From NCBI GenBank assembly GCA_963774265.1, contig CAVZDU010000001.1, positions 384,001 to 448,000 of the forward strand: DNA of 64,000 nt. Reading direction: 5' to 3'. The stretch is from an uncultured Chloroflexia bacterium (lineage in GTDB: Bacteria > Chloroflexota > Anaerolineae > CG2-30-64-16). How positions within the stretch are numbered: the first letter of the stretch is position 1; each line of letters begins with the position of its first letter. This document shows positions 27,824 through 54,411 of this stretch, piece by piece. The notes beneath the pieces were generated by a model. The model made no database searches, was not told where the DNA came from, and worked only from the letters and a program-made list of their open reading frames with translations. A program made the translations under genes and the position numbers.

Positions 27824-27900
27824 GCACGGTGCGCACGGTGCGTACGGTGCGTACGGGCGGACCTGCATGTCCGCCCTCGTGTCCGCCTTCTCGTCCGCCT
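27824..27900 (+). repeat. REP-like element (GTAC-GGGCGGAC family) with amplified ends
   Basis: (GYACGGTGC)3-GTACGGGCGGAC-CTGCAT-GTCCGCCC followed by degenerate GTCCGCC repeats. Confidence 0.85.
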
Positions 27901-27957
27901 GTTTCGCCGCCAGCTACGTGTCCACTCGACCATCGCACCGATCCTCGGAGGTAGTCC

Positions 27958-29127
27958 ATGCCGCCAGATACGGCCACTAAGTCTCTGCCTTCGGCCCGCA
28001 AGCCGCCTGTTGACTGGGTGGGGCTGCTGCTCAGAGCAGCAGCGCCTGTCTTGGCCATCCTCGTCGCCCTCCTCGTGGGAGCAATCGTGCTTCTCCTCTT
28101 GGGCGCCAATCCGCTCACTGCATACGCCGCCATGGTCAAAGGCGTCTTCGGCAGCACGTACGGTTTCACGCAATCGCTGGTTAAGGCGACGCCCCTGCTG
28201 TTGGTCGGTCTGGGCATCTGCATCGCCTTCCGCGCCAGCGTGCATCAACATCGGCGGCGAAGGCCAGATCATCGCGGGCGCGTTGATGACCACCTGGTTC
28301 TCGCTGCAGTTTCGCACCTGGCCCGGCTGGCTGCTGATCCCAGCCACCATGATCATGGGGTTCCTGGCCGGGGCGTTTTGGGGGTTCATCCCCGGCATCC
28401 TGAAGGCCCGGCTCAACGTCAACGAAATCCTGAGCACGGTCATGATGAACGCCATCGGCTTACAGCTCATGAACCTCCTGCTCCGCGGTCCCCTGATTGA
28501 CCCCGCGGGCGTCACCGCGGGGACGTTTCTGCATCAGTCCGAACGCCTGCCCGAACAGGTATGGCTGGGCCGGCTGTGCCGCAGACCCAATTGCACACCG
28601 GGGCCGCCATTGCGGTGGTGCTGGCGGTGCTGGTCTACATCTTCCTGTGGCGCACTACCATCGGCTATCGGATCCGCGCCGTGGGCCTGAGCCCGGAGGC
28701 CTCCAGATACGCGGGCATCCGCGTGCCGTTCTACCAGGCCTTGTCGCTGACGCTGGCCGGTGGGTTCGCCGGGCTGGCCGGAGTGGTCGAGGTCATCGGC
28801 GTGCAGCACCGCCTGCTGGAAGGCATCACCAGCGGCTATGGCTTCTCAGGCATCGTGGCCGCGCTGTTCGGCGGCCTGCACCCGCTCGGCCTGATTCCAG
28901 CGTCGTGGCTGTTCGGCAGCCTGTTGGTGGGCGCTGACATGATGCAGCGGGCCGTCCAGGTGCCTTCGGCGCTAATCGATGCGTTGCTGGGCCTGATCGT
29001 GCTGTTGGTAATCGGCTCGCAGATGTGGTCGCACCGCATGGCTACGCGCCGAACGATCGCTTTGGCGAAGAAAGCAGAGCTTGTAGGGCGACCGCAGGTC
29101 GCCCCCGGAACGGAGGCCAAGGCATGA
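27958..29127 (+). CDS. Nucleoside/purine ABC permease 1 (second system); frameshifts near 28243 and 28572
   Basis: KATPLLL, NIGGEGQ, NEILSTVMMN, GYGFSGIVAAL; RBS ggagg. Confidence 0.85.
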
Positions 29128-30059
29128 ACGAGATCACGACAACCGCGATCGTTATCGGTATCCTCACCTCGGCCGTCCGCCTGGCGACACCGTATCTGTA
29201 TGCGAGCCATCGGCGAGGCGATCTCGGAGCTCTCCGGCGTGGTCAACCTGGGCGTGGACGGCATCATGCTGATGGGCGCGTACGGGGCCTTCTTCGTGGC
29301 CTTGAACACGGGCAATCTGTGGCTGGGCCTGCTGGCCGGCGCTGCTCGTCGGCGTGTTGATGGGCCTGCTCATGGCATTCATCAGCGTCACCCTGAAGGC
29401 CGAACAAGGCATCAGCGGCATCGGCCTGTACATGTTCGGGTTGGGCCTCTCCAGCCTGCTGTTCAAGACCACCATCGGCACGGTCAAGACCATCGTAGGA
29501 TTCCAGCCGGTCAAGATTCCGCTGCTCGGCGACATCCCATTCATCGGCGAGATCCTTTTCAACCAGAGCCTGCCGGTCTACGGCGCGTTCCTGCTGGTAC
29601 CGCTGGCCTGGTTCATCCTGGACAAGACGACCTGGGGATTGCAGCTAAAGGCCGTCGGGCAGACCCCGGCCGCGGCTGACTCGCTGGGTGTGAACGTCGA
29701 TCGGGTGCGCTACATCGCGACCTGCGTGGGCTCGATGCTGGCCGGGCTGGCCGGCGCGTCGCTGTCGCTGGCGTTGGTCAACCTGTTCCAGGAGAACCTG
29801 ACCGCAGGCCTGGGCTTCATCGCGGTGGCGCTGGTCTATTTTGGCGGCTGGCGGCCGCTGGGCATCATGCTCGGTGCGCTGCTCTTCAGCACGGTCAACG
29901 CGTTCCAGTTGTGGATGCAGGTGCTGGGGGTCCCCATTCCGTCCGATGTGGCGGTGATGTTGCCCTACCTGCTTGACGATCGTGGCGCTGGCCTTCACAG
30001 TGAACCGCGTGCGAGGGCCGGCAGCACTCAACAAGCCCTTCGAACGCGGGGCGCACTAG
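29124..30059 (+). CDS. Nucleoside/purine ABC permease 2 (second system); frameshifted
   Basis: ELSGVVNLGVDG, LKAVGQTP.AADSLG, GLGFIAVA, PAALNKPF. Confidence 0.85.
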
Positions 30060-30060
30060 G

Positions 30061-30152
30061 GAATCGAAGATGAAAGATTGAAGATTGAGGGTTGAAGTTC
30101 TGCGTTCCTCAACCTGTGATCTTCAATCTGCAATCGAAAATCGGAAATCGGA
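30061..30152. repeat. Intergenic 7-nt-periodic inverted repeat
   Basis: gattgaa/gattgag/ggttgaa arms versus ctcaacc/cttcaat, then aaatcgg repeats. Confidence 0.6.
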
Positions 30153-30168
30153 AAAAGGAGAAGGTAGT

Positions 30169-31191
30169 ATGAAAACCCGCACGTTGTTCGTTCTTGTCAT
30201 GGTGATCGCTCTCGGCATGGTTGCCGCTGCTGGCCGGATGTGGCGGCGGCGCGGCCACCACCGGCGGCAGCACTGCCGCCAAACCGCTGCGCGTCGCCGT
30301 GGTGATGCCCAGCGCCACCACCGATATGGCGTTCAGCCAGTCCATGTTCGCACGCACTCAAGACCGTCCAGGCTGAGATGGGCGGCGAGGCGAAGATGGA
30401 GATCAAGTACTCGGAGAACATGTTCAAGGTGCCGGATGCCGCGGCCGCGCTCCGTGACTACGCCAGCCAGGGCTTCGACATCGTCATCGCCCACGGCTCG
30501 CAGTACGGCACTTCGGTCCAGGAAGTCGCCAAGGACTTCCCCAAGATGACCTTCGCCTGGGGCACCGACGTCAACACCTTCGGGATGCCGAACGTCTATG
30601 CCTACACGCCGCCGCCGAAGCAGGGTGGCTACGTCAACGGCGTGATGGCAGCGATGCTCTCCAAGAGCAAGGTGATCGGCGTGACCGGCCCGGTGGAAGT
30701 CGGGCGATGCCAAGACCTACATCGACGGCTTTGTCCAGGGCGTGGCGTCGGTCGATCCGACCATCAAGGTCTCCAAGACCTGGACCGGCTCCTTCTCGGA
30801 CGTGGCGCTGATGACCGAGGCGGCCAAGACGCACATCGCCGCCGGCGCGGACGTGTTGACCGGCTCCTCGCAGTCCGTGGTCGGCTCCATCAATGCGGCC
30901 AAGGAGAAGGGCACCGTGCTGTGGTTCGGCACGCAGCAGGACCAGGCCATCCCTGGCCCCGCAGAACGTCGTCGCCAGCCAGCAGTACGACTGGACCGGC
31001 ATCCTGAAGCAGATGATCGAGAACCGCAAGAACGGCAAACTGGGCGGTGAGACCTTCACCCTGGAGCTCAAGAATGACGGCTTGAAGATCGTCTACAACT
31101 CTGGCTATCAGCTGCCCGGACAATGTCAAGAAAGCCGCCGATGCGGCGATCGACGGCATCAAGGGCGGCACGCATCAAGGTCAACCCGTAA
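30169..31191 (+). CDS. BMP family ABC substrate-binding protein (second system); several frameshifts
   Basis: Signal peptide, DMAFSQSM, LRDYASQG..IAHGSQYG, GYVNG..AA, WTGSFSD, GADVL. Confidence 0.8.
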
Positions 31192-31194
31192 CAA

Positions 31195-31252
31195 TGAATG
31201 AAAGGAAGAAGGAAGAAGGAAGCAGGATCTTCCTATCTTCCTTCTTCCTTCA
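31195..31252. repeat. (GAAGGAA)n-GATC-(TTCCTTC)n palindrome
   Basis: aaggaagaaggaagaaggaagcaggatcttcctatcttccttcttccttca. Confidence 0.85.
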
Positions 31253-31281
31253 AGCACTGATGCAAGGGCCAGGAGTGGAAG

Positions 31282-32850: not shown

Positions 32851-32880
32851 AGATTACGAAATTGAGACGAACTCCAACCC

Positions 32881-33064
32881 GTACGGGGGTACGGTGCGTA
32901 CGGGCGGACCTGCGTGTCCGCCCCAACCCGCAACTCTTGCGCGACCGCACATCGCCCCCGAAGCGGGAGCGGCGCAGGATGCGCGAAGGGCGGCCGCAGG
33001 ATGCCGTAAGGGCGGCCGCGGATGCCGTACGGGCAGACCTGTGTGTCCGCCCCCGTGTCCGCCC
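32881..33064 (+). repeat. Composite REP-like cluster (two GTAC-GGGCRGAC copies flanking internal direct repeats)
   Basis: Copies at 32898 and 33027; between them gggcggccgc-ggatgccgta occurs twice. Confidence 0.8.
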
Positions 33065-33089
33065 GCACTCGGCAAGGGGGGCCATCCCT

Positions 33090-33902
33090 GTGGGACTACG
33101 TAGCCCGGGTCCAGGCGCCCGGCCTCTTTACATCTGGGCCGTCGACGCGTTGTATGAGCTGATCGAAACGGGCGTCTATGGGCCAGGCCAGCCCCTGCCC
33201 GCTGAGGCCGAGCTTGCCATGCAGTTGGGCGTCTCACGATCTACTCTGCGTGAGGCGCTAGGCTATTTAGAGAAAGATGGGCTAATCATCCGCAAGCACG
33301 GAGTGGGCACCTTCGTGGCGCCTCACTCAGCTCAGATTTCGGGCGGTCTGGAACGATTGGCCACCTTTCGCTCTGTCGCCGAACTTGCGGGCGCGTCCGT
33401 GCAGATTGTATCTCGCACGGTTACCCTGACGGAGGCCGATGAGGTTGCGGGCAGAGCGCTCCAGGTGCCTCCAGGCAGCGAACTGGAGCGGGTGGAAGTG
33501 ACCGAGGCAGTCGACGGCTGCACCATGGTCTATTTGGACGGACTGATTGCCAGTAAGTGGGTGGATCATGAAAAGCTGGCCTCCGACGAGGGGTCGCTCT
33601 TGGAGTATCTGGTCCGGCAGACGCATCTACCGATCGCGTACTCACGTTCATTGATCTACGCCATTGGCGCCAACCAAGACCTGGCCCGCCGGTTGGGCGT
33701 GCCGGAAGGCGAAGCGGTCCTACAGCTGGTCGAGACGGTGTATACCGATAAGGATCTGCCCATCGCATTCTTCCGCAACTACTTTGTGACTAACGGCTAC
33801 CATCTAAAGATCGTCCGCCGGATCGCCAAAGTGCCCGGCATCAAAATGCCCGGCATTAGGGAATTGAAGACTACGGGGGGAAGCGAGCATGGAACGGTTT
33901 AG
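33090..33902 (+). CDS. GntR family (HutC/UTRA) transcriptional regulator
   Basis: LPAEAELAMQLGVSRSTLREAL...GVGTFV HTH plus UTRA-like C-terminus; start uncertain (frame open from 32847; GTG 33090 follows aaggggg). Confidence 0.88.
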   Translation: MGLRSPGPGARPLYIWAVDALYELIETGVYGPGQPLPAEAELAMQLGVSRSTLREALGYLEKDGLIIRKHGVGTFVAPHSAQISGGLERLATFRSVAELAGASVQIVSRTVTLTEADEVAGRALQVPPGSELERVEVTEAVDGCTMVYLDGLIASKWVDHEKLASDEGSLLEYLVRQTHLPIAYSRSLIYAIGANQDLARRLGVPEGEAVLQLVETVYTDKDLPIAFFRNYFVTNGYHLKIVRRIAKVPGIKMPGIRELKTTGGSEHGTV

Positions 33903-37677: not shown

Positions 37678-37722
37678 AGGTTTCCTGACCTCAACTTTCA
37701 ACCTGTAACCTGTAACCCGTAA
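37667..37722. repeat. 7-nt-periodic inverted repeat overlapping the xdh stop codon
   Basis: ttacaggttgaagg ... actttcaacctgtaacctgtaacccgtaa. Confidence 0.65.
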
Positions 37723-37736
37723 AGAGGTGAACCAAA

Positions 37737-38948: not shown

Positions 38949-38952
38949 CCCT

Positions 38953-41142: not shown

Positions 41143-42108
41143 ATGACACCACAACCCAAGAGAGTCGCGGTCGTCGCCATTGGCGGTAATTCGCTGATCC
41201 TGGACGCCAAGCACCAAACCGTCGAAGACCAATACCTAGCGGCAAAAGAGACCACTTGTCACATCGCAGATATGATCGAGGCCGGGTGGGAAGTTGCCAT
41301 CGGCCACGGCAATGGGCCACAAGTCGGCTTCATCTTGCGCCGTTCCGAGATCGCAGCGAAGGTCGAGGGCATGCACGAGGTGCCGCTGGACGTGTGTGGC
41401 GCCGATAGCCAGGGCGCCATCGGCTACGCACTGCAGCAGACCCTCCAGAACTGGTTGTTCCAACGCAAGATCCAGAAGAACGTCGCGACAGTCATCACCC
41501 AGGTGCTGGTAGACCGCAACGATTCGGCATTCAAGAATCCCACGAAGCCCATCGGTAGCTTCATGAGTGAAGACGAGGCCAAACGCCGCGAGGCAGAGAT
41601 GGCCTGGTCGGTGGTCGAGGATGCCGGACGGGGCTGGCGCCGCGTCGTCGCATCACCGCTGCCCAAAGAAGTAGTGGAGATCGAGACCGTCAAGGCGCTC
41701 ATCAATGCCGGCGTCGTCGTCATCACGGTAGGCGGGGGCGGCATCCCTGTAATCGACCCGGGCGATGGGAATTACCAGGGCACGGCCGCCGTCATCGATA
41801 AGGACTATGCCTCCAGCTTGCTTGCGCAAAGCATCAATGCCGACATGTTCCTGATCTCGACCGCGGTCGAGAAAGTGGCGATCAACTTCGGCAAGCCGGA
41901 TCAGCAGTGGCTGGACCGCATGACCCTGTCTGAGGCCAAGAAATACCTGGCGGAGGGCAAACACTTCGCCAAGGGGTCGATGGCTCCCAAGGTCCAGGCC
42001 ATCATCTGGTACATGGAAGCCGGCGGCAAGCATGCCATCATCACCAACCCGGAAAACATCGGCCGCGCGCTGCGTGGCGAGACTGGGACACATATCGTGC
42101 CGGATTGA
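41143..42108 (+). CDS. arcC: Carbamate kinase
   Basis: VAIGGNS, HGNGPQVG, NPTKPIG, GWRRVVASP, GGGGIPV, VIDKD, GSMAPKV. Confidence 0.95.
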   Translation: MTPQPKRVAVVAIGGNSLILDAKHQTVEDQYLAAKETTCHIADMIEAGWEVAIGHGNGPQVGFILRRSEIAAKVEGMHEVPLDVCGADSQGAIGYALQQTLQNWLFQRKIQKNVATVITQVLVDRNDSAFKNPTKPIGSFMSEDEAKRREAEMAWSVVEDAGRGWRRVVASPLPKEVVEIETVKALINAGVVVITVGGGGIPVIDPGDGNYQGTAAVIDKDYASSLLAQSINADMFLISTAVEKVAINFGKPDQQWLDRMTLSEAKKYLAEGKHFAKGSMAPKVQAIIWYMEAGGKHAIITNPENIGRALRGETGTHIVPD

Positions 42109-42122
42109 AGTGGGAGCATCAC

Positions 42123-43366
42123 GTGGATCACGTAAAATCGCTGAAGTGTCTGATCTGCGGCGCAGAGTATCGGCCGGACGAGGTGGAGTATATCTGCCCA
42201 CACCATGGGGAAGACGGTATCCTTGACGTCCAGTACGATTACGATCTCATCAAAACCCGCATCAGTCCCCTGTCGCTCGCACAGGACCGCAACAACACCA
42301 TCTGGCGGTATAAACCGCTGTTGCCGATCCACCCTGACAGTCCGGTCCCGCCTCTCACCATAGGTTGGACGCCATTGTACCGGGCTGACCGGCTGGCAGC
42401 GGGGTTGGGGCTGAAGCACGTGTGGGTCAAAGATGACGGGCGCAACCCGAGCGCATCCTTCAAGGATCGGGCGAGTGCTATCGCAGTGGTAAAGGCGCAG
42501 GAGAGGGGCGCCGAGATCATCACCACGTCCAGCACGGGTAATGCCGGCGCAGCGCTTTCCGCACTGTGCGCCAGCGTGGGACAACCCAACGTGATCTTCG
42601 TGCCCGAATCCGCACCACCCGCAAAGGTCGCGCAATTGCTGGTCTACGGCAGCACCGTGATGCTGGTTCGCGGCAGCTACGATGACGCGTTCGAGCTGTG
42701 TGCGTGGGCGGCCAAAGAATTCGGCTGGTACAACCGCAACACTGGCTACAACCCGTACATGAGCGAAGGCAAGAAGACGGCCTCGCTCGAGATTTGTGAG
42801 CAATTAGAGTGGGACGCGCCGGACTGGATCGTCGTCTCGGTCGGGGATGGTTGCATCATCGGCGGTCTGTATAAAGGGCTGTTTGACCTGCACAGCCTCG
42901 GCTGGATCAAAAAGATGCCCCGCATCCTGGGCGTTCAGGCCGCTGGGTCGGCTGCGCTGTACGACGCGTGGCGCACGCGGCATCGACGCAATGGAAATGC
43001 AGCCGATCGACGCACACACGATTGCTGACAGCATCTCCGCCGGGCTGCCGGCCGACCGAATCAAGGGCCTGGCGCGCCGTGCGGGCGACCGGTGGGGCAT
43101 ATACCAAGGTGACCGACGAGGAAATCATCGCGGCGATCCCGGTGCTGGCGCAGCGCAGCGGCGTTTTCGCGGAGCCAGCAGGCGCTGCGTCGTATGCAGG
43201 ACTTAGCCAGGCGGTCAAAGAGGGACTAATCGATCCCGAAGAGCGCATCGTCGTCCTCGTGACCGGCAATGGACTGAAAGACATTGCGACGGCGCGTAAG
43301 TCCGTTTCGGAACCCTATGTTGTTGATAAAGACCTGGCCGACGTGAAACGCGTGCTGGGCCGATAA
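42123..43366 (+). CDS. Threonine synthase-like PLP enzyme (fold type II); frameshifts near 42975 and 43065
   Basis: CxxC...C zinc knuckle, GWTPL, NPSASFKDR, SSTGNAG, EGKKT, EPAGAAS, VTGNGLKD. Confidence 0.85.
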
Positions 43367-43369
43367 TAC

Positions 43370-43422
43370 GGAAGGAAGAAGGAAAAAGGAAGAAGGAGAT
43401 CTTCCTTCTTCCTTCTTCCCTC
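43370..43422. repeat. (GAAGGAA)n-GATC-(TTCCTTC)n palindrome
   Basis: ggaaggaagaaggaaaaaggaagaaggagatcttccttcttccttcttccc. Confidence 0.85.
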
Positions 43423-43437
43423 TGGAAAGGCATTCAC

Positions 43438-44899
43438 ATGATCGATCTGACTGTCCATCCCGATCGCCTCGAGCGCACCGTCCAACGGGCGCGCGAGCGC
43501 AACATCATCATCCCGACCTTCAAGCAGATGCAGAACCCGGCCCTCGATCCCCGACAAAGTCAAGGCGGGACTGAAAAACATCGGACTGTGGGATATCAAC
43601 CCATTGAACCTCTTCCGCATCACCTGGAAGAACGAGCCCGTGGCAAAAGGTGGCGGATTCGGCGGCGTTAATTATCTGGACCTGCCCAAGGCGCTGACCG
43701 GTGTGGACGCGCGCATCATTGTGCTGGTGGGCAAGTGGTTCCCCACCGGCGCGCACAAGGTCGGCGCTGCGTTCGGCTGCCTTGCGCCCCGCCTGGTGAC
43801 CGGCCAGTTCGACCCGACCACCCAGAAGGCCGTCTGGCCCTCCACGGGCAACTACTGCCGCGGCGGCGCGTACGATTCGGCCCTGCTGGCATGCCAATCG
43901 ATCGCCATCCTGCCCGAAGGCATGAGCCGCGAGCGGTTCGAATGGCTGTCCAAGGTGGCCGGCGAGGTGATCGCAACCCCTGGCACAGAGAGCAACGTCA
44001 AGGAAATCTTCGACAAGTGCTGGGAGCTGCGCCGCTCGGGCCAGGATCTGATGATCTTCAACCAATTCGAAGAGTTCGGCAATGTCTTGTGGCATTATGC
44101 AGTCACGGGCAATGCCTTTGAAGAAGTGCTGGCGGAGCAACTGCGCCCTGGAGAAACCTTGGCAGGCTCAGTCTTCACCACCGGCTCCGCAGGAACTATC
44201 AACGCAGGCGACCGCTTGAAAGAACTGTTCCCGCAGAGCAAGATCGCAGCCAGCGAGGCGCTGCAATGTCCTACTCTGCTGCAGAACGGCTTCGGCGCAC
44301 ATCGCATCGAAGGCATCGGCGACAAGCACGTGCCGTGGATCCACAATGTCAAGAACACTGACATGGTGATGGCGGTTGACGACGAAGTTCCCATGCAGAT
44401 GATCCGGCTGTTCAACGAGCCGGAGGGGCGCAAGTACCTGGTCGAAAAGGGTGTCCCCGAAGAATTGGTGGCGAAGCTCGACACGATCGGCATTTCCGGT
44501 GCAGCCAACATCGCATCGGCTATCAAGATGGCAAAGTGGTACGAGTGGGGCGAGGGCGATGTAGTTGTCACCCTGCTGACGGACTCCATGGAACTGTACG
44601 GCTCCCGCCTGACTGAGCTCACCGCTGAACGCGGCGAGTTCACTTCCCGCGACGCAGCCGCCGCATATCATCAGCACATCCTGGGCCTCAGCACCGACTA
44701 CGTCGAAGAGCTGACCTATCCGGCCCGCAAGCGCGTACACAACCTGAAGTACTACACCTGGGTCGAGCAACAAGGCAAGACCTATGAAGAAATCCTGGCG
44801 CAGTGGGACCAGAAGGATTACTGGACCAGCGTCCACGGCCAGGTCAATGCAATTGACGCGTTGATCGAGGAGTTTAACGCGAAGGTCGGGTTGCTGTAA
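43438..44899 (+). CDS. PLP-dependent fold type II enzyme (cysteine synthase-like); frameshift near 43545
   Basis: FPTGAHKVGA (PLP Lys), PSTGNY, NQF, GSAGT, HRIEGIGD, GISG. Confidence 0.8.
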
Positions 44900-44918
44900 G
44901 GAAGTGGCCCTGCAACTC

Positions 44919-44999
44919 GTACGGTGCGTACGGTGCGTACGGGCGGACCTGCGTGTCCGCCCTCGTGTCCGCCCTGCGTGTCCGCCCTCGTGTCCGCCC
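44919..44999 (+). repeat. REP-like element (GTAC-GGGCGGAC family) with amplified ends
   Basis: (GTACGGTGC)2-GTACGGGCGGACCTGC followed by four GTGTCCGCCC units. Confidence 0.9.
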
Positions 45000-45026
45000 A
45001 ACCTGCAACCCGAACAGGAGTTTGCC

Positions 45027-48000
45027 ATGTCCGACTACTTGATGATCCAACCCTTCGCCGTCCAGTTGCGGCGGATCCTGAAAGAATACGAGGCGACCGA
45101 TTCCATCTTTGGGATTCACAAGTCGCTCTTCTATACCCCGAAAGCGAACGCCCCGTTCGCAGTCCCCGATGTCTATGGCAAGTATCTGGGCACGCCCATC
45201 GGCCCATCGGCCGGCCCGCACACCCAGTGCAGTCAGAACATCATCAGCGCCTGGTTGTGCGGCGGTCGCTTCATCGAGCTGAAGACGGTGCAGATCCTCG
45301 ACGAGTTGGTGATTCCGCGGCCCTGCATCGACATGGAAGACGAGGGCTACAACGTCGAATGGTCGCAGGAACTGAGGCTGGAAGAATCGGCGCACGAATA
45401 TGCCGTTGCCTGGGCGCTGGTGCACGTCCTGCCGCGCATCTTGCGTTGGGATGTAGGGGCGGGTCTCGCACCCGCCATCCCCGGCGCCATTTTCGACATG
45501 AGCGTTGGCTACAACCTGGAAGGCATCCGTAGCCCGCGCGTCGTCAACTTCATGAACAAGATGGAAGACGCCTCCGAGGAGGTCGCCCAGATCAAGGCCA
45601 TCCTGCGCCGCGACTTCCCTCAGTTCGCAGATATCGAGATCCCCAACCGAATCGCCAACAGCATCACCCTTTCCACCATGCACGGCTGCCCGCCCGATGA
45701 AATCGAGCGCATCACCGAACATCTGTTGACCGACCGTAAGCTGCACACCATCGTCAAGATGAACCCGACCCTGCTGGGCAAGGAACAGGTGCTCGATATC
45801 CTGCACAACGCTCTCGGTTTTCGCGAGATCGTTATCCCCGATTCGGTCTTCGAACATGACATCGCCTACGACAAGGCGGTTGGGCTGATCGGCCGGATGC
45901 AAAACGTGGCTGCACAGCAAGGCCTGGCATTCGGCGTCAAGCTGAGCAACACGCTGGCCATGCACAACCACAAGCAGGTCATGCCCGGCGACGAAATGTA
46001 CATGTCGGGCCGCGCGCTCTACCCGGTCACTATGAACCTGTTTAACAAGCTGGCGCACGAATTTAACGGTGACCTGCGCGTTTCCTACTCGGCCGGCGCA
46101 GATGCGTTGAACATCGCCACCATCGCGTCTTGCGGCCCAGTTCCCATCACCGCCTGCTCTGACCTGCTGAAACCCGGCGGTTACGCCCGTTTCGGCCAAT
46201 GGCTGGAAAACCTTGAAACAGCGATGGTTGCCGCAGGTGCGAAGAACCTGACCGAATTCTCCGCCAACAAACTGGACAACGTCAAGGCCGCCGCAGCTGC
46301 TGCGTTGACTGACCATCGATGGAAGAAAGAATATGTTCCCTACGGCCTGCCCAAAGTGAAATCGGGACTGGGGCTATGGGACTGTATTGTCGCGCCATGC
46401 ATGGAGCCCTGTGCCGTGTGCCAGGACGTGCCGGAATACAATTGGTGGATCGCCCAGGGTGACCCGGACAAATCACTCGAAGTCATCCTGCAGCGCAACC
46501 CCATGCCCGGCGTCACCGGCTACGTCTGCACGCACTTGTGCCAGACGCGCTGCGTTCGCAATGATTACGAGGAGTCAGTTGGCATACGTGCACTCAAACG
46601 TTACGCTGAGGAGCACGGCCAGATTCGGCCGCTCGCTGCCAAAGAAAGCGTGGACCGAAAAGTGGCCATTATCGGCAGCGGCCCATCGGGTTTCTCCGCG
46701 GCCTTCTACCTTGCGCTCAGCGGTGTGGATGTCACCATGTTCGAGGCCAAGGATGTACTGGGGGGTATGATGCGCCTGGTGCCAGTCTTCCGACTGCCGT
46801 GGGAAATCATCCAGCGGGACGTTGACCGCATCCTGAACCTGGGCGTCAAGCTTGAATTCAACCACCCGATCGTCGACGCGCCGGAAAGGCTACTTGTAGG
46901 GGCGGGTCTAGCACCCGCCCAACAGGGGTTTGACGCCGTCGGTTACGATGCCGTCGGTTACGATGCCGTCGGTTACGATGCCGTCGGTTACGACGCAGTG
47001 TACGTGGCTACGGGCTTCCAGAAGGATACGCCATTGCCCATCCCCGGCATTGAAGGACAAGGCGTACATGTCGCCATGGACTTGCTCGACCGGACCCGTC
47101 GTGGAGAGCGCCCGAACCTGGGTAAGAAAGCGCTGGTTATCGGCGGCGGCGACACAGCTATGGACGCAGTACGGACATCCGCCCGCCTGACCGGCAACCC
47201 GACCACCATCGTCTACCGGCGCTCTCGCGAAGAGATGCCAGCCAGTCCCGAGGAACTTGAAGGGGCTCTGGAAGAAAGCAACATCTTGATGGAGCTCGTC
47301 TCGCCGGTGCGCGTTGTGCTGGATGACAGCGGGAAGGTCGTTGCCCTGGAATGCCAACGCAATGTCTTGGGAGAGCCCGGCCCGGACGGCCGTCGCAAGC
47401 CCGTCGCCATTCCTGGCAGCGAGTTCCAGATCCCGTGCGACTCGGTCATCCTCGCAGTTGGCCAAAGTCCCGATTTCGAATTCCTCCGAGGCAGCGCCAT
47501 CAAAACCACCCGACAGGGCGGCATCGCGATTGACCCGGTGACGGGTGCAACCGGAACACCGGGCGTCTACGCCGGGGGTGACGCCGCAGAAGCCGGCCCA
47601 GAAAGCATCATTGCGGCCTGCCAGGGGGGCCGCCGAGCCGCACAGAGCATCTGCCAGCAATTCGGCATCGCTTTCAAAGAGCCGCCCTCGGAAAAGCCTG
47701 TCCTGTCCCAGGACGAAATCATCGAAGTCAAACGAGTGCGGACACGTAAGATCGAACAAGTGGAGCCGGGCTGCCTGCCCGTCCCGTTCCGCAGCGGCTT
47801 CGACATGATCGAATTGACGCTGACGCCGGCCGAGGCCGTCATTGAGGCCAGGCGCTGTGTTCAGTGCACCACCTTCTGCGATAAGTGCGTCGAGGTGTGC
47901 CCCAACCGCGCCAACCAAACCTTCCTCATGCGGCCTGTAGATGTGATGCTACCCCGCCTGGCAATGACCTCAGAGGCGTCGCAACCCGCTGGGTTGCACG

Positions 48001-48467
48001 TGATCGGCTACGAACGCTTCGTCATCGGCCAGGAGCGGCAAATTATCAACATCAACGACTTCTGCAACGTGTGCGGTGACTGCACCACCTTCTGTGTTCA
48101 CCACGGCCAGCCCTGGATGGATAAACCGCGGCTGTTCTTGAACGAAAAGGACTTCCTGGCCGAGGATCACAACGCCTATCGGATAACTGCCAACGGCATG
48201 GATGCCGCCGGCATCATCCGACACCGCGACGTGGGGGCGGCTGGCCAGCCGCGTGAATCACAACTCACGCGGTCTGGCGGCCACCTGGTCTACGAGTGCC
48301 CCGAAGCGCGCGTAACCCTCACGCCGGCATTCGAAATCAAGGAGATGGTTGCGAAGTCGTCGTTTGCCGCCGGCATGCATGCCGCCTTGTCCCTGCGAGA
48401 CGCCGCCGAACTGGCCGTGATTCTCAAGGGCGTCACCGAGACACTGCCGCACCTGGTGGTTGCATAA
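45027..48467 (+). CDS. ygfK: YgfK-like Fe-S flavoprotein oxidoreductase
   Basis: GPSAGPHTQ..QNI, ELKTVQ, PRPCID..DEGYNVEWS, LSTMHGCPP.EIE, KLSNT, MYMSG, GltD-like GSGPSG and GGGDTAMD, C-terminal CDKCVEVCPNRAN and CNVCGDC. Confidence 0.9.
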   Translation: MSDYLMIQPFAVQLRRILKEYEATDSIFGIHKSLFYTPKANAPFAVPDVYGKYLGTPIGPSAGPHTQCSQNIISAWLCGGRFIELKTVQILDELVIPRPCIDMEDEGYNVEWSQELRLEESAHEYAVAWALVHVLPRILRWDVGAGLAPAIPGAIFDMSVGYNLEGIRSPRVVNFMNKMEDASEEVAQIKAILRRDFPQFADIEIPNRIANSITLSTMHGCPPDEIERITEHLLTDRKLHTIVKMNPTLLGKEQVLDILHNALGFREIVIPDSVFEHDIAYDKAVGLIGRMQNVAAQQGLAFGVKLSNTLAMHNHKQVMPGDEMYMSGRALYPVTMNLFNKLAHEFNGDLRVSYSAGADALNIATIASCGPVPITACSDLLKPGGYARFGQWLENLETAMVAAGAKNLTEFSANKLDNVKAAAAAALTDHRWKKEYVPYGLPKVKSGLGLWDCIVAPCMEPCAVCQDVPEYNWWIAQGDPDKSLEVILQRNPMPGVTGYVCTHLCQTRCVRNDYEESVGIRALKRYAEEHGQIRPLAAKESVDRKVAIIGSGPSGFSAAFYLALSGVDVTMFEAKDVLGGMMRLVPVFRLPWEIIQRDVDRILNLGVKLEFNHPIVDAPERLLVGAGLAPAQQGFDAVGYDAVGYDAVGYDAVGYDAVYVATGFQKDTPLPIPGIEGQGVHVAMDLLDRTRRGERPNLGKKALVIGGGDTAMDAVRTSARLTGNPTTIVYRRSREEMPASPEELEGALEESNILMELVSPVRVVLDDSGKVVALECQRNVLGEPGPDGRRKPVAIPGSEFQIPCDSVILAVGQSPDFEFLRGSAIKTTRQGGIAIDPVTGATGTPGVYAGGDAAEAGPESIIAACQGGRRAAQSICQQFGIAFKEPPSEKPVLSQDEIIEVKRVRTRKIEQVEPGCLPVPFRSGFDMIELTLTPAEAVIEARRCVQCTTFCDKCVEVCPNRANQTFLMRPVDVMLPRLAMTSEASQPAGLHVIGYERFVIGQERQIININDFCNVCGDCTTFCVHHGQPWMDKPRLFLNEKDFLAEDHNAYRITANGMDAAGIIRHRDVGAAGQPRESQLTRSGGHLVYECPEARVTLTPAFEIKEMVAKSSFAAGMHAALSLRDAAELAVILKGVTETLPHLVVA
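46932..47000 (+). repeat. In-frame 15-bp tandem repeat (DAVGY)4 inside ygfK
   Basis: GAYGCCGTCGGTTAC x4 plus a partial unit. Confidence 0.95.
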
Positions 48468-48525
48468 AGGAAGAAAGAAGAAGGAAAATTGGGATCTTCC
48501 ATCTTCCTTCTTCCATCTTCCTTCT
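48467..48525. repeat. (GAAGGAA)n-GATC-(TTCCTTC)n palindrome
   Basis: aggaagaaagaagaaggaaaattgggatcttccatcttccttcttccatcttccttct. Confidence 0.85.
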
Positions 48526-48540
48526 CGTAGGAGATGTGAC

Positions 48541-49884: not shown

Positions 49885-49888
49885 ATTC

Positions 49889-49981
49889 ACCACAAAGACA
49901 CAAGAGCTCCAAGCTTCACGAGGCTTGCTCCTTTGTGAGGCTTGCAAAGCAAGCCGCTTGGCTTCTTTGTGTCTTTGTGGT
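49889..49981. repeat. Miniature inverted-repeat element (15-bp perfect arms)
   Basis: ACCACAAAGACACAA ... TTGTGTCTTTGTGGT. Confidence 0.8.
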
Positions 49982-50017
49982 TAACTAAGGATCCCTATCA
50001 TGCAAGAGGAGGCTCGC

Positions 50018-50203
50018 ATGGCTGAGATCACTTTCTCGTGGGTGCGTGCGCTTCGAGAAGGGACGCTGACCCAGGTTCAAATGGAGTCCTTGGAAGCCTT
50101 GGTCGACAACGACGAAGCAGAATCACTGGAAGAAGCTGCCCGCTTGCTCGACGTTCAGGCGACGCATAATCCCGGAGGCGAGCCGGGGACCCGCGCATAC
50201 TAG
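50018..50203 (+). CDS. Small acidic hypothetical protein (61 aa)
   Basis: Strong RBS gaggagg before ATG 50018; helical acidic composition; co-oriented in the operon. Confidence 0.55.
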   Translation: MAEITFSWVRALREGTLTQVQMESLEALVDNDEAESLEEAARLLDVQATHNPGGEPGTRAY

Positions 50204-50240
50204 CATCGCTTGGGCGGCGGCGTTGGTATAGCAAAGCCAA

Positions 50241-50382
50241 CCTGTTGGGGCGGACCTGTTGGGGCGGACCTGTTGGGGCGGACCTGTTGGGGCGGACCTG
50301 TTGGGGCGGACCTGTTGGGGCGGACCTGTTGGGGCGGACCTGTTGGGGCGGACCTGTTGGGGCGGACCTACGTGTCCGCCCC
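50241..50382 (+). repeat. (CCTGTTGGGGCGGA)9 tandem array ending in a full REP hairpin
   Basis: Nine perfect 14-bp units 50241-50366, then completion as GGGGCGGAC-CTACGT-GTCCGCCCC. Confidence 0.95.
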
Positions 50383-50503
50383 GTGGGTGGACTGAGTTCG
50401 CACACGTCGCCAGGACAGGAAGACCACAAAGCTTCACGAAGCGAAAATGAAACTCTTGGTGAAGCGTTATACCCTGGCGCCTTTGTAGTTTACGGAGATG
50501 CAT

Positions 50504-52063
50504 ATGTGGCATACCTACTATGCGCCGGCCACGGTCGGCGAAGCGCTCGACCTGTTGGGCCAGCACGGCGACGCCTGCCGTCTGATCGCGGGCGGCTCGG
50601 ACCTGATCCTGGAGTTGGAGCGTGGTGTGCGCCACCAGGAGATCCTGGTGGACATCTCTCGCGTCGCCGGCTTGGGTCAGGTCGTCTACACGCGCAGCAG
50701 TTCTGTGAACTCAACCGATGTAGCGCAAGTTGACAACCCCCGCTGCCCGGATAGTGCCGGCATGCTGACTCTTGGCGCTAACGTGACGCACAACCAGGTG
50801 GTGGCCAATACCGACGCGGTCGCCTGCGCCTTTCCCCTGGCTCGTGCATGCTGGTTGGTCGGCGCGCCACAAATCCGCAATCGCGGCACGGTTGCCGGCA
50901 ACTTGATCACCGCCAGCCCTGCGAACGATACCATTACGCCGCTGTGGGCCATGGATGCAACGGTGACCCTGGTCAGCGCCGCGCGAGGCGAGCGCACCCT
51001 CCCGTTCGACCAGTTTTTCCTCGGTGTCCGCCGCACGACCCTGCTGCCCGAGGAGATGCTCGTCCGAATCAACGTCCCAACCTTGAAACGAAGCGAGCGC
51101 GGCACGTTTCTGAAGCTAGGTCTGCGCCAGGCGCAGGCGATCAGCCTGATCAATGTCGCCGCCGTGCTCGATTTCGGCAGCGACGGCTCCATCTTACGGG
51201 CCCGCATCGCGCTTGGGGCAGTCGCCCCCACCATCGTGCGGGCGAGTCAGGCTGAGTCTTATCTAGCCGGCAAGATGCTGCGATCCAGGGATCGCTCAGA
51301 TGATGTGATCGATGAGGCGGCAGAACTGGCGGCAGGAGCGGCCCGGCCCATCTCCGACATACGTGCTGGCGCCGACTACCGCCGTGATATGGTGCGCGTA
51401 TACACCGCACGCGCCCTGTGCGAATTGCGCGACGGGACCGAACGCGATGGGTGGCCCGAAAAGCCGGTGCTGCTGTGGGGCACACGTCGGGGCGACAACG
51501 ATGCGCGATCCAGGGATCGCTCGATCCAGGGATCGCAGCATCGCCCGATCACCCCGACGCCACCCCAGCAGGACGGCATTTCCTTCACACTCAACGGACA
51601 GCCGGTGACCCTGCATGGCGCACATGGCAAAACGCTGTTGCGCGCTCTGCGCGAGGATGCCGGCCTGACCGGCACCAAGGAAGGTTGCGCCGAAGGCGAG
51701 TGTGGGGCATGCACGATCTGGCTAGACGGTGTGGCCGTGATGAGCTGCCTCGTGCCGGCTGAACGGGCCGCTGGCTGCGACGTCGTTACGGTGGAAGGGC
51801 TGGGGACGCCTCCGGCAGTCAACAGAGATGGAGAGCCGGCTGCAGTCGTCACGGCGCTGCATCCGTTACAGCAGGCGTTCATCGATGCAGGTGCGGTGCA
51901 GTGCGGCTATTGCACGCCCGGTATCCTTATGTCCGCTGCGAACCTGATGCAAGAGGTGACCCATCCGACCCTGACCCAGGTCAAGGAAGCACTCACCGGC
52001 AATCTCTGCCGCTGCACGGGATACTACAAGATCCTCGAAGCGGTGGAAAAGGCGGTCCAATGA
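50504..52063 (+). CDS. Fused FAD-binding plus [2Fe-2S] subunit of a molybdenum hydroxylase
   Basis: N-terminal IAGGSDL, QIRNRGTVAGN, FLKLGLR; C-terminal GTKEGCAEGECGAC, QCGYCTPG, GNLCRCTGY in one frame. Confidence 0.9.
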   Translation: MWHTYYAPATVGEALDLLGQHGDACRLIAGGSDLILELERGVRHQEILVDISRVAGLGQVVYTRSSSVNSTDVAQVDNPRCPDSAGMLTLGANVTHNQVVANTDAVACAFPLARACWLVGAPQIRNRGTVAGNLITASPANDTITPLWAMDATVTLVSAARGERTLPFDQFFLGVRRTTLLPEEMLVRINVPTLKRSERGTFLKLGLRQAQAISLINVAAVLDFGSDGSILRARIALGAVAPTIVRASQAESYLAGKMLRSRDRSDDVIDEAAELAAGAARPISDIRAGADYRRDMVRVYTARALCELRDGTERDGWPEKPVLLWGTRRGDNDARSRDRSIQGSQHRPITPTPPQQDGISFTLNGQPVTLHGAHGKTLLRALREDAGLTGTKEGCAEGECGACTIWLDGVAVMSCLVPAERAAGCDVVTVEGLGTPPAVNRDGEPAAVVTALHPLQQAFIDAGAVQCGYCTPGILMSAANLMQEVTHPTLTQVKEALTGNLCRCTGYYKILEAVEKAVQ

Positions 52064-54411
52064 GCGAAAACGTACGGGCGGACCTGTGTGTCCGCCCCCG
52101 TGTCCGCCCCATGAGCACACCCGCCCAAACTCACACTCACGCAGTGGGCGCTAACGCCGCGCGCATCGATGCACCGGGCAAGGTGACCGGTGAGACGCTC
52201 TACCCCGGTGATATCTCCTATGCAGACCAGCTTCATATGGCAACTTTGTTCGCCGGCCGCGTACATGCGCGCGTGCTGAGCATCAATACATCGGCTGCCG
52301 AGGCTGCGCCGGGCGTCGTAGCGGTGTTTACGGCAAAAGACGTGCCGGTGAACGAGTATGGACTCCAGATCAAGGACCAACCGGTCCTTTGCGGTCCCGG
52401 CTCGGCAAAACCTGGGACGGACGTGGTGCGCTTCGTCGGTGACCAGCTCGCGCTCGTGGTGGCTGAGACTGAGGGTCAGGCGCGCGCGGCGTGCAAGCTG
52501 ATTCGAGTCGAATGGGAAGATCTGCCCCTGGTGCTCGATGCTGAGGAAGCTATGCAGCCCGGCGCGTACCTGCTCCACCCGAACAGAGCCGACAACATCT
52601 GCTACAGCTACCGTATCCGCAAGGGCGACGTAGCGCAGGGATTTGCCGACGCCGACGTCGTCATCGAGGGAGTCTATCAGACGCCGGTGCAGGAGCATGC
52701 CTATCTCCAGCCCGAGGCGGGCGTGGCCCATATCGACGACGCGGGCCGCGTGACCGTGGAGGTCGCGGGTCAGTGGACGCACGTCGATCAGGAGTCGATC
52801 GCCCACGCCCTGGGCCTGCCCATCGACCAGGTCCGCGTCATCTACCCGGCCATCGGCGGCGCCTTCGGCGGCCGCGAGGACATGTCCGTACAGATCACGC
52901 TCGCGCTCGCAGCCTGGCGACTCGCCGAACGCGGGGTGCGGCGTCCCGTCAAGACCATCTGGACCCGCGAGGAGTCACTCGCCGGTCACGGCAAGCGCCA
53001 CACGATGAAGCTCTACACCAGATGGGGCGCGAAGAAAGACGGGATGTTGACAGCCATAGAGGTTAAGGTCATCGCAGATGGCGGCGCGTACATGTATACC
53101 AGCAACAAAGTGCTGGGCAACACCACGCTGACCTGCACCGGGCCTTACGCGGTTCCCCACGCGGCCGTCGATACCTACGCCGTTTACACAAATAACGTCC
53201 CGGGCGCCGCATTCCGTGGTTTCGGCGGCCCCCAGGGCCACTTTGCCGCCGAGACACAGATGGATCGCCTGGCCGAGGCGTTGGGTATGGACCCGGTCGA
53301 GCTGCGCCTGAAGAACATCCTCACTGAGGACAAGCTGCTCACCGTGGGCACCCCCATCCCTGGCGGTGTCGGCCTGACCGCGGTGGTGACCGCGGCAGCC
53401 GCCGCAGCTGGCTGGAAACAGGACGAAGCCGGACACTGGCGCCGACCGGCGTACGGGGCGTACGGGGCGTACGGGCGGACCTGCGTGTCCGCCCCCGTGT
53501 CCGCCCCCGTGTCCGCCCGTTCCACTTCCTCCACCATCAAGCGCGGCATTGGTTTTGCGGCAGGTTTCAAGAATGTGGGGTTCTCCTTCGGTTACCAGGA
53601 GAACAGCTACGCGCGCGTTGAGCTGCGGGGAACCGGGGAGATCGCCGAAGCCACCGTCTATTTTGCCGGCGCCGACTGCGGCCAGGGTAACCACACCATC
53701 ATCTCACAGGCCGCGGCCGAGGTTCTGGGCATCCCCCTTGCCCACGTGCGCGTCGTTGCATCCGACACCGCGCAAATGGGCAACGCCGGCAGCGCATCCG
53801 CCTCGCGCCTCACGTATATGAGTGCGAACGCTGTTAAGGGCGCGGCCGAAAAGGCGCTAACCGCCTGGCAAAACGAAGATCGCCCCGCAGTGGGTGAGAA
53901 CGTGTATCTTGCGCCCAAGACCACGCAGCTGGATCACGACACGGGTTACGGCAAACCCAACTTCGCGTATGGCTACACGGCGCAAGCTGTGCAGGTGGCC
54001 GTCGACACAGAAACCGGCCAGGTGCGCGTGGAGAAATTCATCTGTGCTGATGACGTGGGCAAGGCTGTCAATCCGCAGCAGGTCGTGGGACAGATCGAGG
54101 GGGCTGTCATTCAGGCGCTCGGCTACTCGCTCTTGGAGGATTGGAAAACCAAGGACGGCCGCGTCCTCACAGACAGACTCAGCACCTATCTGATCCCCAC
54201 CGTGCTGGATCTGCCCGACCAGCTCGAGTCGATCATCGTCGAGGTGCCGGACCCAAACGGCCCCTGGGGCGCTCGGGGCATGGGCGAAGTGCCCTACTTG
54301 CCCGTGGCGGCCGTCGTCGCTGCCGCGGTATACGATGCCATCGGCATAAGATTCAACGAGTTCCCGCTGACGCCAGAGCGAGTATGGCGTGGGCTGCAGA
54401 CAAAAAAGTAG
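52060..54411 (+). CDS. Xanthine dehydrogenase family molybdopterin-binding subunit 2
   Basis: QEHAYLQPE, GGAFGGREDMSVQ, AFRGFGGPQ, ASR, GARGMGE; ATG 52060 overlaps upstream TGA (alternative start 52111). Confidence 0.93.
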   Translation: MSENVRADLCVRPRVRPMSTPAQTHTHAVGANAARIDAPGKVTGETLYPGDISYADQLHMATLFAGRVHARVLSINTSAAEAAPGVVAVFTAKDVPVNEYGLQIKDQPVLCGPGSAKPGTDVVRFVGDQLALVVAETEGQARAACKLIRVEWEDLPLVLDAEEAMQPGAYLLHPNRADNICYSYRIRKGDVAQGFADADVVIEGVYQTPVQEHAYLQPEAGVAHIDDAGRVTVEVAGQWTHVDQESIAHALGLPIDQVRVIYPAIGGAFGGREDMSVQITLALAAWRLAERGVRRPVKTIWTREESLAGHGKRHTMKLYTRWGAKKDGMLTAIEVKVIADGGAYMYTSNKVLGNTTLTCTGPYAVPHAAVDTYAVYTNNVPGAAFRGFGGPQGHFAAETQMDRLAEALGMDPVELRLKNILTEDKLLTVGTPIPGGVGLTAVVTAAAAAAGWKQDEAGHWRRPAYGAYGAYGRTCVSAPVSAPVSARSTSSTIKRGIGFAAGFKNVGFSFGYQENSYARVELRGTGEIAEATVYFAGADCGQGNHTIISQAAAEVLGIPLAHVRVVASDTAQMGNAGSASASRLTYMSANAVKGAAEKALTAWQNEDRPAVGENVYLAPKTTQLDHDTGYGKPNFAYGYTAQAVQVAVDTETGQVRVEKFICADDVGKAVNPQQVVGQIEGAVIQALGYSLLEDWKTKDGRVLTDRLSTYLIPTVLDLPDQLESIIVEVPDPNGPWGARGMGEVPYLPVAAVVAAAVYDAIGIRFNEFPLTPERVWRGLQTKK
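52072..52110 (+). repeat. REP-like element in the 5' end of the Mo subunit 2 gene
   Basis: GTACGGGCGGACCTGTGTGTCCGCCCCCGTGTCCGCCCC between two in-frame ATGAGC. Confidence 0.9.
53451..53518 (+). repeat. REP-like element inserted in frame in Mo subunit 2
   Basis: (GTACGGGGC)2-GTACGGGCGGACCTGC-(GTGTCCGCCCCC)2-GTGTCCGCCC translated AYGAYGAYGRTCVSAPVSAPVSA. Confidence 0.92.

Follow-up and report, generated by a model that had tools for sequence, protein, structure and literature searches.

Seven hairpins in a Chloroflexia genome are GTAG-type REPs with stuttered ends and a probable RAYT partner

A small hairpin recurs seven times in a stretch of 64,000 nucleotides (nt) from an uncultured Chloroflexia bacterium (hereafter the window; C1:384001-448000), and these seven elements are members of a GTAG-type family of repetitive extragenic palindromes (REPs). 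The genome that holds the window (G000) is an incomplete metagenome-assembled genome (MAG) of 5.51 Mb in 10 contigs (C1-C10), 84% complete and 5.65% contaminated, with apparent frameshifts within the window; G001 and higher numbers denote the genomes of relatives, and L-numbers denote fetched loci. The explanation that we consider probable is that the elements are REPs of the GTAG superfamily with a REP-associated tyrosine transposase (RAYT) elsewhere in the genome, that they spread locally, and that the tandem repetition of their ends (stutter) was made by slippage.

We searched the window with the pattern GGGCRGAC-N(4-8)-GTCYGCCC and recovered exactly seven hairpins of the form GGGCRGAC-N6-GTCCGCCC, starting at 27855, 32902, 33031, 44941, 50360, 52076 and 53473, while no match of any kind appeared in dinucleotide-preserving shuffles of the window (0/100). 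These are the seven places given by an earlier, sequence-only reading of this DNA, whose coordinates include a 4-nt head. The head is GTAC in 6/7 window copies and GTTG in 1/7. Because the stem is palindromic, direction was assigned by the flanks and by the loop, CTRYRT, which is asymmetric. The loop lies on the plus strand in 7/7 copies, and the co-orientation that had been claimed for the window therefore holds throughout, with no inverted partner beside any copy.

A genome-wide count of the strict hairpin gives 13 copies, of which 7 lie in the window, 5 on C3 and 1 on C2. With the four central stem positions left free and at most one stem mismatch allowed, the family grows to 29 copies on 5 contigs, a low number for a REP family. 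Its structure is an 8 bp stem with a 6 nt loop; the loop, the closing pair and the three G-C pairs at the foot (pairs 1-3, 29/29) are invariant, and stem pairs 4-7 appear in six combinations, every one of them compensated. A search with only the left half and the loop gave 56 matches, of which 29 had 0-1 stem mismatches, 26 had 4-7 and one had 2. This bimodal outcome indicates that the complementarity of the arms is no product of the family filter. Heads in the 29 copies are mostly GTAG (18), with GTAC in 8 and GTTG in 2. Published degeneracy of the GTAG head extends to GYAG, GYRG, GTRG and GTMG (PMC3733652, used here, like the other papers cited, for part of its content), and the GTAC head of the window copies fits GTMG. 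When the scan was widened to any GGG-hairpin preceded by GTAG, GTAC or GTTG, it yielded 98 strand-specific matches, against 1-23 for each of the other tetranucleotides before GGG, and brought in sister types with the loops CTTGC or GGCC as well as 'double-foot' GTAG...CTAC forms. Elsewhere in the genome, in-frame family copies lie in genes for a PHP-UvrD-like helicase, NuoN (two), a NuoG-like protein, a NuoE-F fusion, a 2074-aa surface protein and a CHAT/TPR protein. At C6:202191-202216 and L048:395-425 the upstream gene ends at the TAG within the GTAG head; in L048 that gene is a RAYT gene. The assignment to a REP family made in the sequence-only reading is borne out by this genome-wide family and by its association with a RAYT.

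A Pfam scan of the genome with PF01797 (Y1_Tnp) returned three genes, two of which, the IS200-type genes at C7:428276 and C1:1281552, are flanked by unrelated hairpins and by no family copies. A fourth gene was found from the flanks of the C3 copies. It lies at C3:418683-419309 on the minus strand and encodes 208 aa with the motifs NHFH, WQ and YIDENP. Four family copies stand upstream of it and one copy with an inverted partner stands downstream, where there is also a 17-nt array (6.8 units) of the hairpin arm with a short duplicate of the post-loop sequence. Two more hairpins sit in frame in the loop between NHFH and WQ, encoding VGADLRVGP and VRADLRVGP, and the frame remains open over its 208 aa. 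A RAYT gene flanked by the motif had been proposed as something to look for, and this gene has hairpins on both sides and inside its loop. Hairpins on both sides together with two in frame in the HuH-Y loop form the published signature of subclass 2.4 (PMC6006769). Judged by this in-loop signature and by the motifs NHFH and WQ, and scored against generic models only, the C3 gene is the predicted cognate RAYT, probably of subclass 2.4 (group 4), and it may well be the enzyme that moves the window copies.

Three paralogs of the C3 RAYT, also resembling subclass 2.4, were found in the genome by tblastn (C1:1019441-1019995, C10:187913-188653 and C5:45826-46338), and those at C10 and C1:1019441 have their own REP type inside the loop and on the flanks, with stutter. 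The C1 paralog has GTAGAGACGTTGCATGCAACGTCTCTAC upstream and in its loop and an 18-nt stutter downstream; the GAGACGT stem of its hairpin is present in 24 copies, the most frequent perfect hairpin in the scan. The loop of the C10 paralog holds a 15-nt array of 8.1 units. Near the C3 gene itself, C3:418225-418400 comprises a REP doublet, then six 17-nt arm repeats, then the post-loop duplicate, which encodes EIMQWFK; this stretch resembles what is left of a second RAYT loop, or a gene duplicated in part. Outside the genome, homologs of the C3 RAYT (47-75% identity) occur in 3/80 foreign loci, from Dehalococcoidia, deltaproteobacterial and Bacteroidetes MAGs, and in these three loci a hairpin is found at the same loop position or directly after the stop codon. 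In-frame loop hairpins are likewise present in L048 and L103, and the Y motif of the Bacteroidetes homolog reads YIMNNP.

We scored a copy as stuttered when Tandem Repeats Finder reported a repeat with a period of at least 7 and a score of at least 40 within 12 nt of the hairpin. By this measure 19/29 family copies are stuttered (13/22 outside the window), as are 37/78 GTAG-GGGC hairpin loci, compared with 1.6% of random 30-nt windows and 9.7% of other G+C-rich perfect hairpins (n = 566); the counts include some whole-REP arrays, so the share of half-arm arrays is smaller. The stuttered ends described in the sequence-only reading are therefore real, and they are enriched beside hairpins genome-wide. 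Three kinds of unit occur. Left-hand units join the head and the left arm to a few further bases, right-hand units have a few bases ahead of the right arm, and the third kind is adjacent host sequence. In the window, the left 9-mer GTACGGKGC has 2-3 extra units in four copies and the right 12-mer YCGTGTCCGCCC has 1-3 extra units in five, in agreement with the repeated left and right ends that had been described. A further array, of a 14-mer made of the GTTG head, the entire left arm and CT, had not been spelled out.

All seven window copies are on the plus strand, and all except those at 52076 and 53473 lie between genes. Copy 1 (27822..27900) stands upstream of an ABC permease open reading frame (ORF) starting at 27958 and consists of a left 9-nt array (27822-27856, 3.9 units), a GTAC head, the hairpin (27855-27876) and degenerate right 12-nt units (27869-27900). 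Copy 2 (32880..32923), 52 nt past the stop of an ABC ATPase gene, has two extra left units (about 3 units at 32880-32906), a GTAC head and the hairpin at 32902-32923. In copy 3 (32969..33064), upstream of the GntR domain, a 22-nt array of 3.1 units (32969-33034) runs into the GTAC head; the hairpin (33031-33052) has one stem mismatch (GGGCAGAC) and is followed by one extra right 12-mer (33053-33064). Copy 4 (44918..44999) sits between a stop at 44899 and an ATG at 45027, with the left 9-mer in 2.8 units (44918-44942), the hairpin at 44941-44962 and the right arm repeated to four copies (44952-44999, 3.9 units) with periods of 12/13 and a 25-nt super-unit. Copy 5 (50240..50381) is intergenic and carries the 14-mer array (50240-50369, 9.3 units, 100% identity) ahead of its hairpin at 50360-50381. 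Copy 6 (52072..52110) has a GTAC head, the hairpin at 52076-52097 and one extra right 12-mer (52088-52110, 1.9 units); it lies at the junction of the genes for an FAD/2Fe-2S subunit and a molybdopterin subunit, either just past the upstream stop or within the first codons downstream. Copy 7 (53448..53518) combines a left 9-mer array (53448-53475, 3.1 units), the hairpin (53473-53494) and a right 12-mer array (53484-53518, 2.9 units) in frame within the molybdopterin subunit gene (52111-54411), where it encodes AYGAYGAYGRTCVSAPVSAPVSA in a loop and divides the MoCoBD_2 match into two stretches. The CAACC flanks that had been noted were found at 32902 (both sides), 44941 (right) and 50360 (left).

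Two sister hairpins with GTAG heads are also on the plus strand and in frame, both in the gene for a 1146-aa oxidoreductase and both encoding VGAGLAPA. The first (45453..45477) reads GTAG GGGCGGGT ctcgc ACCCGCCA with one mismatch. The second (46896..46993) has its hairpin at 46896-46920, followed by a 15-nt array of 3.9 units (46935-46993) that amplifies the host codons for G(F/Y)DAV. No T run follows any of the seven window hairpins (the next letters are TCGTG, CAACC, CCGTG or CGTGG), and we rejected them as intrinsic terminators on that ground. The 64 kb window gave 0 matches to Rfam families at gathering score, and a tRNA scan of it gave no match.

The length of the repeated unit depends on where the array lies. 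Genes were called with a rough codon-usage caller, and intragenic cases were verified by translation. Arrays deep inside verified genes have periods of 9, 12, 15, 15, 18, 24 and 51, plus a 16+20 pair that sums to 36, whereas intergenic periods include 14, 16, 17, 19, 22, 23, 25, 31, 41 and 73. Multiples of 3 dominate only deep in genes, so the unit length is not intrinsically triplet and selection for an open frame acts as a filter. The claim that units of 9 and 12 nt preserve the reading frame thus stands for the copy at 53473, which is in frame and is the only copy tested directly, and fails as a property of the family, for which such units are not intrinsic. Folding of stuttered copies gave ensemble frequencies of the minimum free energy structure of 0.002-0.06, as the extra arms offer many alternative pairing registers; in these models stuttered hairpins would be the type of template on which misalignment is expected.

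The sequence-only reading had seen a strand bias in its seven copies and had drawn from it a possible RNA-level role or strand-specific insertion. A genome-wide tabulation of orientation supports neither a strand bias of the family nor an RNA-level role. The 22 copies outside the window divide into 11 sense, 6 antisense and 5 undecidable: 6 are sense between co-directional genes and 5 sense inside genes, 2 are antisense between co-directional genes and 4 antisense inside genes, and 5 lie in convergent or divergent spacers. Inverted pairs also exist (C3:336479/336514 and C3:419440/419501). With mixed directions outside it, the co-orientation is local to the window cluster. The first part of what the sequence-only reading had named as refuting its claim, random orientation across the genome, thus applies. 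Counted over the whole genome, copies between co-directional genes are sense in 11 cases (5 window copies and 6 others) and antisense in 2. This hints weakly at a sense bias among intergenic copies, in which the members of one cluster do not count as independent. The contigs show weak GC skew, and the window lies near a shallow minimum of the cumulative skew of C1.

Copies that lie near each other tend to share a stem. Among neighbour pairs at most 30 kb apart, 40/57 have the same stem, where 14.5 were expected and 0/10000 shuffles reached 40. The window subfamily has the stem GGGCGGAC and a GTAC head, the RAYT locus has four stem variants, and stem variants are private to neighbourhoods of 15-30 kb. 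Taken with the right-hand unit that the window copies have in common, this suggests that copies were made over short range, from a founder whose ends were stuttered beforehand. In the nuo cluster (C1:1287984-1301844), six GGGGCGAC-stem copies with GTAG heads occur within 14 kb in both orientations, mostly in frame, in the UvrD-like helicase, NuoN, NuoG-like and NuoE-F genes.

Comparison with relatives marks the inserts as apparently recent gains, in that at four compared sites the insert was absent from all same-genus orthologs recovered. The insert of the copy at 53473 is absent from the same loop in 7/7 same-genus orthologs; the loop has a different sequence in each of the 7, with other palindromes or tandem repeats in at least 3. 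The copy at 52076 is absent from the gene junction in 7/7 same-genus orthologs, the closest of which have the stop/start overlap ATGA. At the site of the sister hairpin at 45453, same-genus orthologs have other sequence. The site of the sister hairpin at 46896 is empty in G002 and G004, which read LL-(E/D)QGF-DAVY where G000 reads LL-[hairpin]-QGF-DAV-(GYDAV)x4-Y; the host's own codons were therefore amplified beside the insert. The molybdopterin loop (~53440-53530 of the window; L015-L021) is hypervariable across the genus, with a different insert in each genome, all in frame: G001 has a palindrome with 15-bp arms (AGAAACCAGGTTTCT), and in G004 and G005 a small hairpin is surrounded by long tandem repeats that contain AATCTTC heptamers.

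A stricter pattern was found in 3/40 relatives (2/7 of the same genus and 1 of the same class), and one copy in G002 is GTAC-headed and stuttered. The exact 22-mer hairpin recurs in at least 123 stretches of a collection of species-representative genomes, with Bacteroidota, Clostridia, Deltaproteobacteria, Acidobacteriota, Chloroflexota, Nitrospirota, Cyanobacteria and others as hosts among the matches listed. In 80 fetched loci with the exact hairpin, which hold 86 copies and underlie all foreign-genome counts of heads and stutter, the head is GTAG in 72/86.

The explanation that we favour runs as follows. The REP would consist of the head tetranucleotide and an 8-bp G+C stem with three G-C foot pairs and the conserved asymmetric loop CTGYGT, and as a hairpin of single-stranded DNA it would be a substrate of the cognate RAYT on another contig. 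A nearby founder with stuttered ends would have spread over 25.7 kb as a GTAC subfamily, which would account for the head, the right-hand unit and the direction that the window copies share. The stutter, a tandem repetition of one arm with a few neighbouring bases or of adjacent host sequence, would start from replication slippage or misalignment promoted by the hairpin; the arrays would later grow and shrink as ordinary short tandem repeats, and inside genes only those that keep the frame would survive. Hairpin-promoted slippage is the most likely cause of the stutter because the units vary in length and content and include plain host sequence, and because the last unit of the arrays is short and incomplete (ACCT at 50240-50369, for instance), as microhomology slippage predicts. 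Many arrays are perfect, which suggests a recent origin and so also favours slippage. Loss of mismatch repair as the source of the many arrays was dropped, since MutS and MutL homologs are present with open frames. One contig of X3, among three low-share (0.07-0.12) metagenome contig sets of a single study, joins 50244 to 50379 through 11 other letters and would represent an empty or variant site; its shorter side of 26 letters and its depth of 3 make it too weak to use.

We consider it doubtful, though still worth weighing, that the stutter is instead a footprint of the transposase. The RAYT would cut single-stranded DNA beside or within the hairpin and rejoin sister ends, so duplicating the interval between cleavage sites, and with the same low likelihood this interval would be the head and left arm, the right arm and spacer, or adjacent host DNA. 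Stutter does accompany every RAYT-paired REP type read in the genome, RAYT loops included, and the loop of the Bacteroidetes RAYT is stuttered as well (24-nt unit, 4.4 copies). Cleavage guided by GTAG is reported to fall between C and T (C/T), and that of a Marinomonas GTAC mutant at G/T or G/A (PMC8266576); the 14-nt array at 50240-50369 and the 24-nt array of the NuoEF-like gene can be phased to end at C/T, and the right-hand units of GTAC-headed copies can all be phased at G/T. Tandem arrays can be phased in many ways, however, and GT and CT are frequent, which makes the fit weak. Under this guide rule (C/T for GTAG, G/T for GTAC) some arrays fit and others do not, and the phasing is ambiguous: the sole possible junction of the left array at 53448-53475 is G/G, the 18-nt array at C2:516736 does not end at C/T, and the GTTG head at 50360 would predict CA, but CT is seen. 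Published cleavage sites, moreover, lie 5' and 3' of the hairpin and none is in the loop (PMC8266576). A bolder form of the idea is rather unlikely; in it the arrays would be natural records of RAYT cleavage and strand transfer, their junctions would be sites chosen by the enzyme, the GTAC subfamily would be a natural guide mutant whose cleavage site has moved, and REP insertion would be a directed generator of in-frame repeats in enzyme loops, with the G(F/Y)DAV x5 array of the oxidoreductase and the molybdopterin loop that is hypervariable across the genus as examples.

That the hairpins are kept for a role in the operon mRNA, as stabilisers or punctuation between cistrons, with selection for sense orientation, is improbable. 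The ratio of 11 sense to 2 antisense copies between co-directional genes would suit such a role, several copies lie 1-52 nt past an upstream stop, at C6:202195 the GTAG head provides the stop, and many REPs are found downstream of ORFs, where their transcription is plausible (PMC3733652). Yet the clustered copies are not independent, intragenic copies outside the window number 5 sense to 4 antisense, and the hairpins have neither the T run of intrinsic terminators nor an Rfam match. The inserts are also absent from all same-genus orthologous operons, so the operon works without them. Seven of the 13 strict genome copies fall in one cluster, two of them just upstream of the gene for a GntR-family regulator (~33130-33902), which could suggest operators of that regulator at purine-catabolism promoters. 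We rejected this reading as hardly credible: compensated stem changes speak for structure, not for sequence read by a protein, copies lie in unrelated genes, in nuo genes and in and around the RAYT gene, the same 22-mer occurs across phyla in unrelated contexts, and the orthologous operons lack the hairpins. It is very improbable that the stutter, or the unit counts, are an artefact of long-read metagenome assembly. Several window genes look frameshifted and the assembly may have indel errors, but stutter of the same kind occurs in independent assemblies (G002 and other phyla), intragenic arrays leave long frames open, and the arrays differ widely in the sequence and length of their units.

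Several observations weigh against REPs moved by the C3 RAYT and stuttered by slippage. The window copies carry GTAC or GTTG instead of the canonical GTAG. In the only RAYT in which such a head was tried, that of Marinomonas, GTAC shifts the cleavage site, and the E. coli TnpA-REP tolerates no mutation of GTAG (PMC8266576); the window copies may thus be poor substrates, and yet they have multiplied. None of the 86 foreign copies in the 80 loci has a GTAC head (0). Stutter is also rarer elsewhere, with a tandem repeat touching the hairpin in about 6/80 foreign loci and a tandem-repeat cover of 6.1% within 60 nt of the hairpin against 3.1% farther away, a two-fold excess only, so that the frequent stutter in this genome would point to a factor particular to the lineage. 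The left 9-mer GTACGGKGC does not simply copy the 5' end of the hairpin (GTACGGGCG), and a single slippage event does not yield it. As for the enzyme, the best NCBIfam match of the C3 RAYT is REP_Tyr_transpos (NF047646) with 57.9 bits in two stretches, below the cut-off of 80, and its match to PF01797 scores 20.7 bits, below the cut-off of 23; the insert that splits its domain explains both these scores and its absence from the PF01797 scan. Lastly, the RAYT is not on the same contig as the window, in a MAG that is 84% complete and 5.65% contaminated.

The cluster in which the window copies lie is transcribed in one direction, with all called genes from 28561 to 58477 on the plus strand. Among hosts and neighbours of the window copies, Pfam identified an ABC ATPase, a GntR/UTRA regulator, a pyridoxal phosphate (PLP) enzyme, an amidohydrolase, a 1146-aa pyridine-nucleotide oxidoreductase with a DPD-type 4Fe-4S domain and two xanthine-dehydrogenase-type subunit sets. 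Between 33889 and 55102 the genes comprise, with content only partly checked by Pfam, the two xanthine-dehydrogenase-type sets, an M20 peptidase-like gene, two carbamoyltransferase-like genes, a carbamate kinase-like gene, PLP enzymes, the large DPD-type oxidoreductase and an amidohydrolase, a content that we take to resemble the enterobacterial ygeW-ygfK-ssnA-xdh purine-catabolism neighbourhood. Four window genes seem frameshifted part-way (27958-29127, 29354-30073, 30378-31007 and 42105-43028), their products being an ABC permease in two ORFs, a second permease, a BMP-type binding protein and a PLP enzyme; the apparent frameshifts are either assembly indels or pseudogenes.

Almost all spacers of the cluster have either a REP or a palindrome whose arms are heptamer arrays. 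Heptamer-arm hairpins were seen in other operon spacers at 30066-30154, 31202-31251, 43371-43423 and 48465-48525, and also at 37695-37722; in one example (AAGGAAG)x3.7 stands opposite (TCTTCCT)x3.3, and there is one direct (AACCTGT)x3.3 array too. CAACC and TGCAACYC motifs, which resemble (CAACCYG) heptamers, bracket several GTAC-headed copies (32890-32945, 44905-45025, 50225-50245 and C6:78590-78740), and in a Dehalococcoidia MAG locus (L053:360-400) an (AGAACCT)x4.1 array lies 13 nt from the same REP. Insertion may favour heptamer arrays as its sites, or may create them as by-products.

Set beside known systems, what we describe adds a REP/RAYT pair, from an uncultured lineage, to a published subclass. 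TnpA-REP subclass 2.4 corresponds to the group 4 RAYTs of Bertels, has short repeats in a variable loop, is patchily distributed across phyla, and is defined by the key motifs NH[IFV]H (HuH), WQ (W) and YIxNNP (Y; PMC6006769, Table 1). The C3 RAYT shares with it NH[IFV]H and WQ, a similar length (~194 aa there, 208 here), canonical long REPs with a 5' GT[AG]G head and three G-C foot pairs, 'double-foot' GTAG...CTAC forms, which this genome also has, short repeats in the variable loop and the patchy distribution among phyla. It differs in that its Y motif, YIDENP, is one position off YIxNNP, in that the window heads are GTAC or GTTG, and in that the 'short repeats' of the subclass are described for the transposase loop alone (PMC6006769). 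Half-arm stutter at dispersed copies and amplification of host codons were not found in the parts used of PMC6006769 (supplementary figures S6 and S10 not covered) or of PMC3733652, and we make no claim that they are unpublished.

GTAG REPs are known from many phyla including Chloroflexi, fall into 24 numbered families and occur inside ORFs, often in repair genes (PMC3733652). The elements here agree with that superfamily in their head tetranucleotide and 6-9 bp stem, sub-families defined by complementary stem residues, dimers and clusters (there tandemly reiterated with flanking DNA), positions downstream of ORFs between co-directional genes, the head TAG as a stop codon, and intragenic copies, here in a UvrD-like helicase; they depart from it in that mostly half of a hairpin is repeated and not the entire REP or dimer (PMC3733652). 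With the E. coli REP/BIME system and the Marinomonas REPtron they have in common a hairpin of single-stranded DNA and a GTAG guide. Those enzymes cleave at a dinucleotide chosen by the guide and perform strand transfer in vitro; they belong to groups 2 and 3, the E. coli REP stem is bulged, and the biochemistry in PMC8266576 covers no group 4 enzyme. IS200/IS605 elements have a Y1 HuH transposase, subterminal hairpins and strand-specific single-strand transposition tied to the lagging-strand template (PMC6006769, PMC8266576). The REPs here are, by contrast, gene-less hairpins of 26 nt. Rickettsia palindromic elements (RPEs) are tolerated in surface loops of proteins; most are longer than these REPs and belong to another sequence family, and to our knowledge they have no known transposase. 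Like the REPs here, RPEs are small palindromes found in frame in genes (PMC3733652).

For annotation, the finding means that several odd peptide stretches in enzymes of this bacterium are translated hairpins. Arrays occur beside the hairpins far above chance, and inside genes their unit lengths are filtered by frame, so that REPs act as local seeds of variation in the length of protein loops. How REPs multiply is still poorly understood (PMC8266576). If the arrays were made by the transposase, they would provide a rare in-genome readout of RAYT activity.

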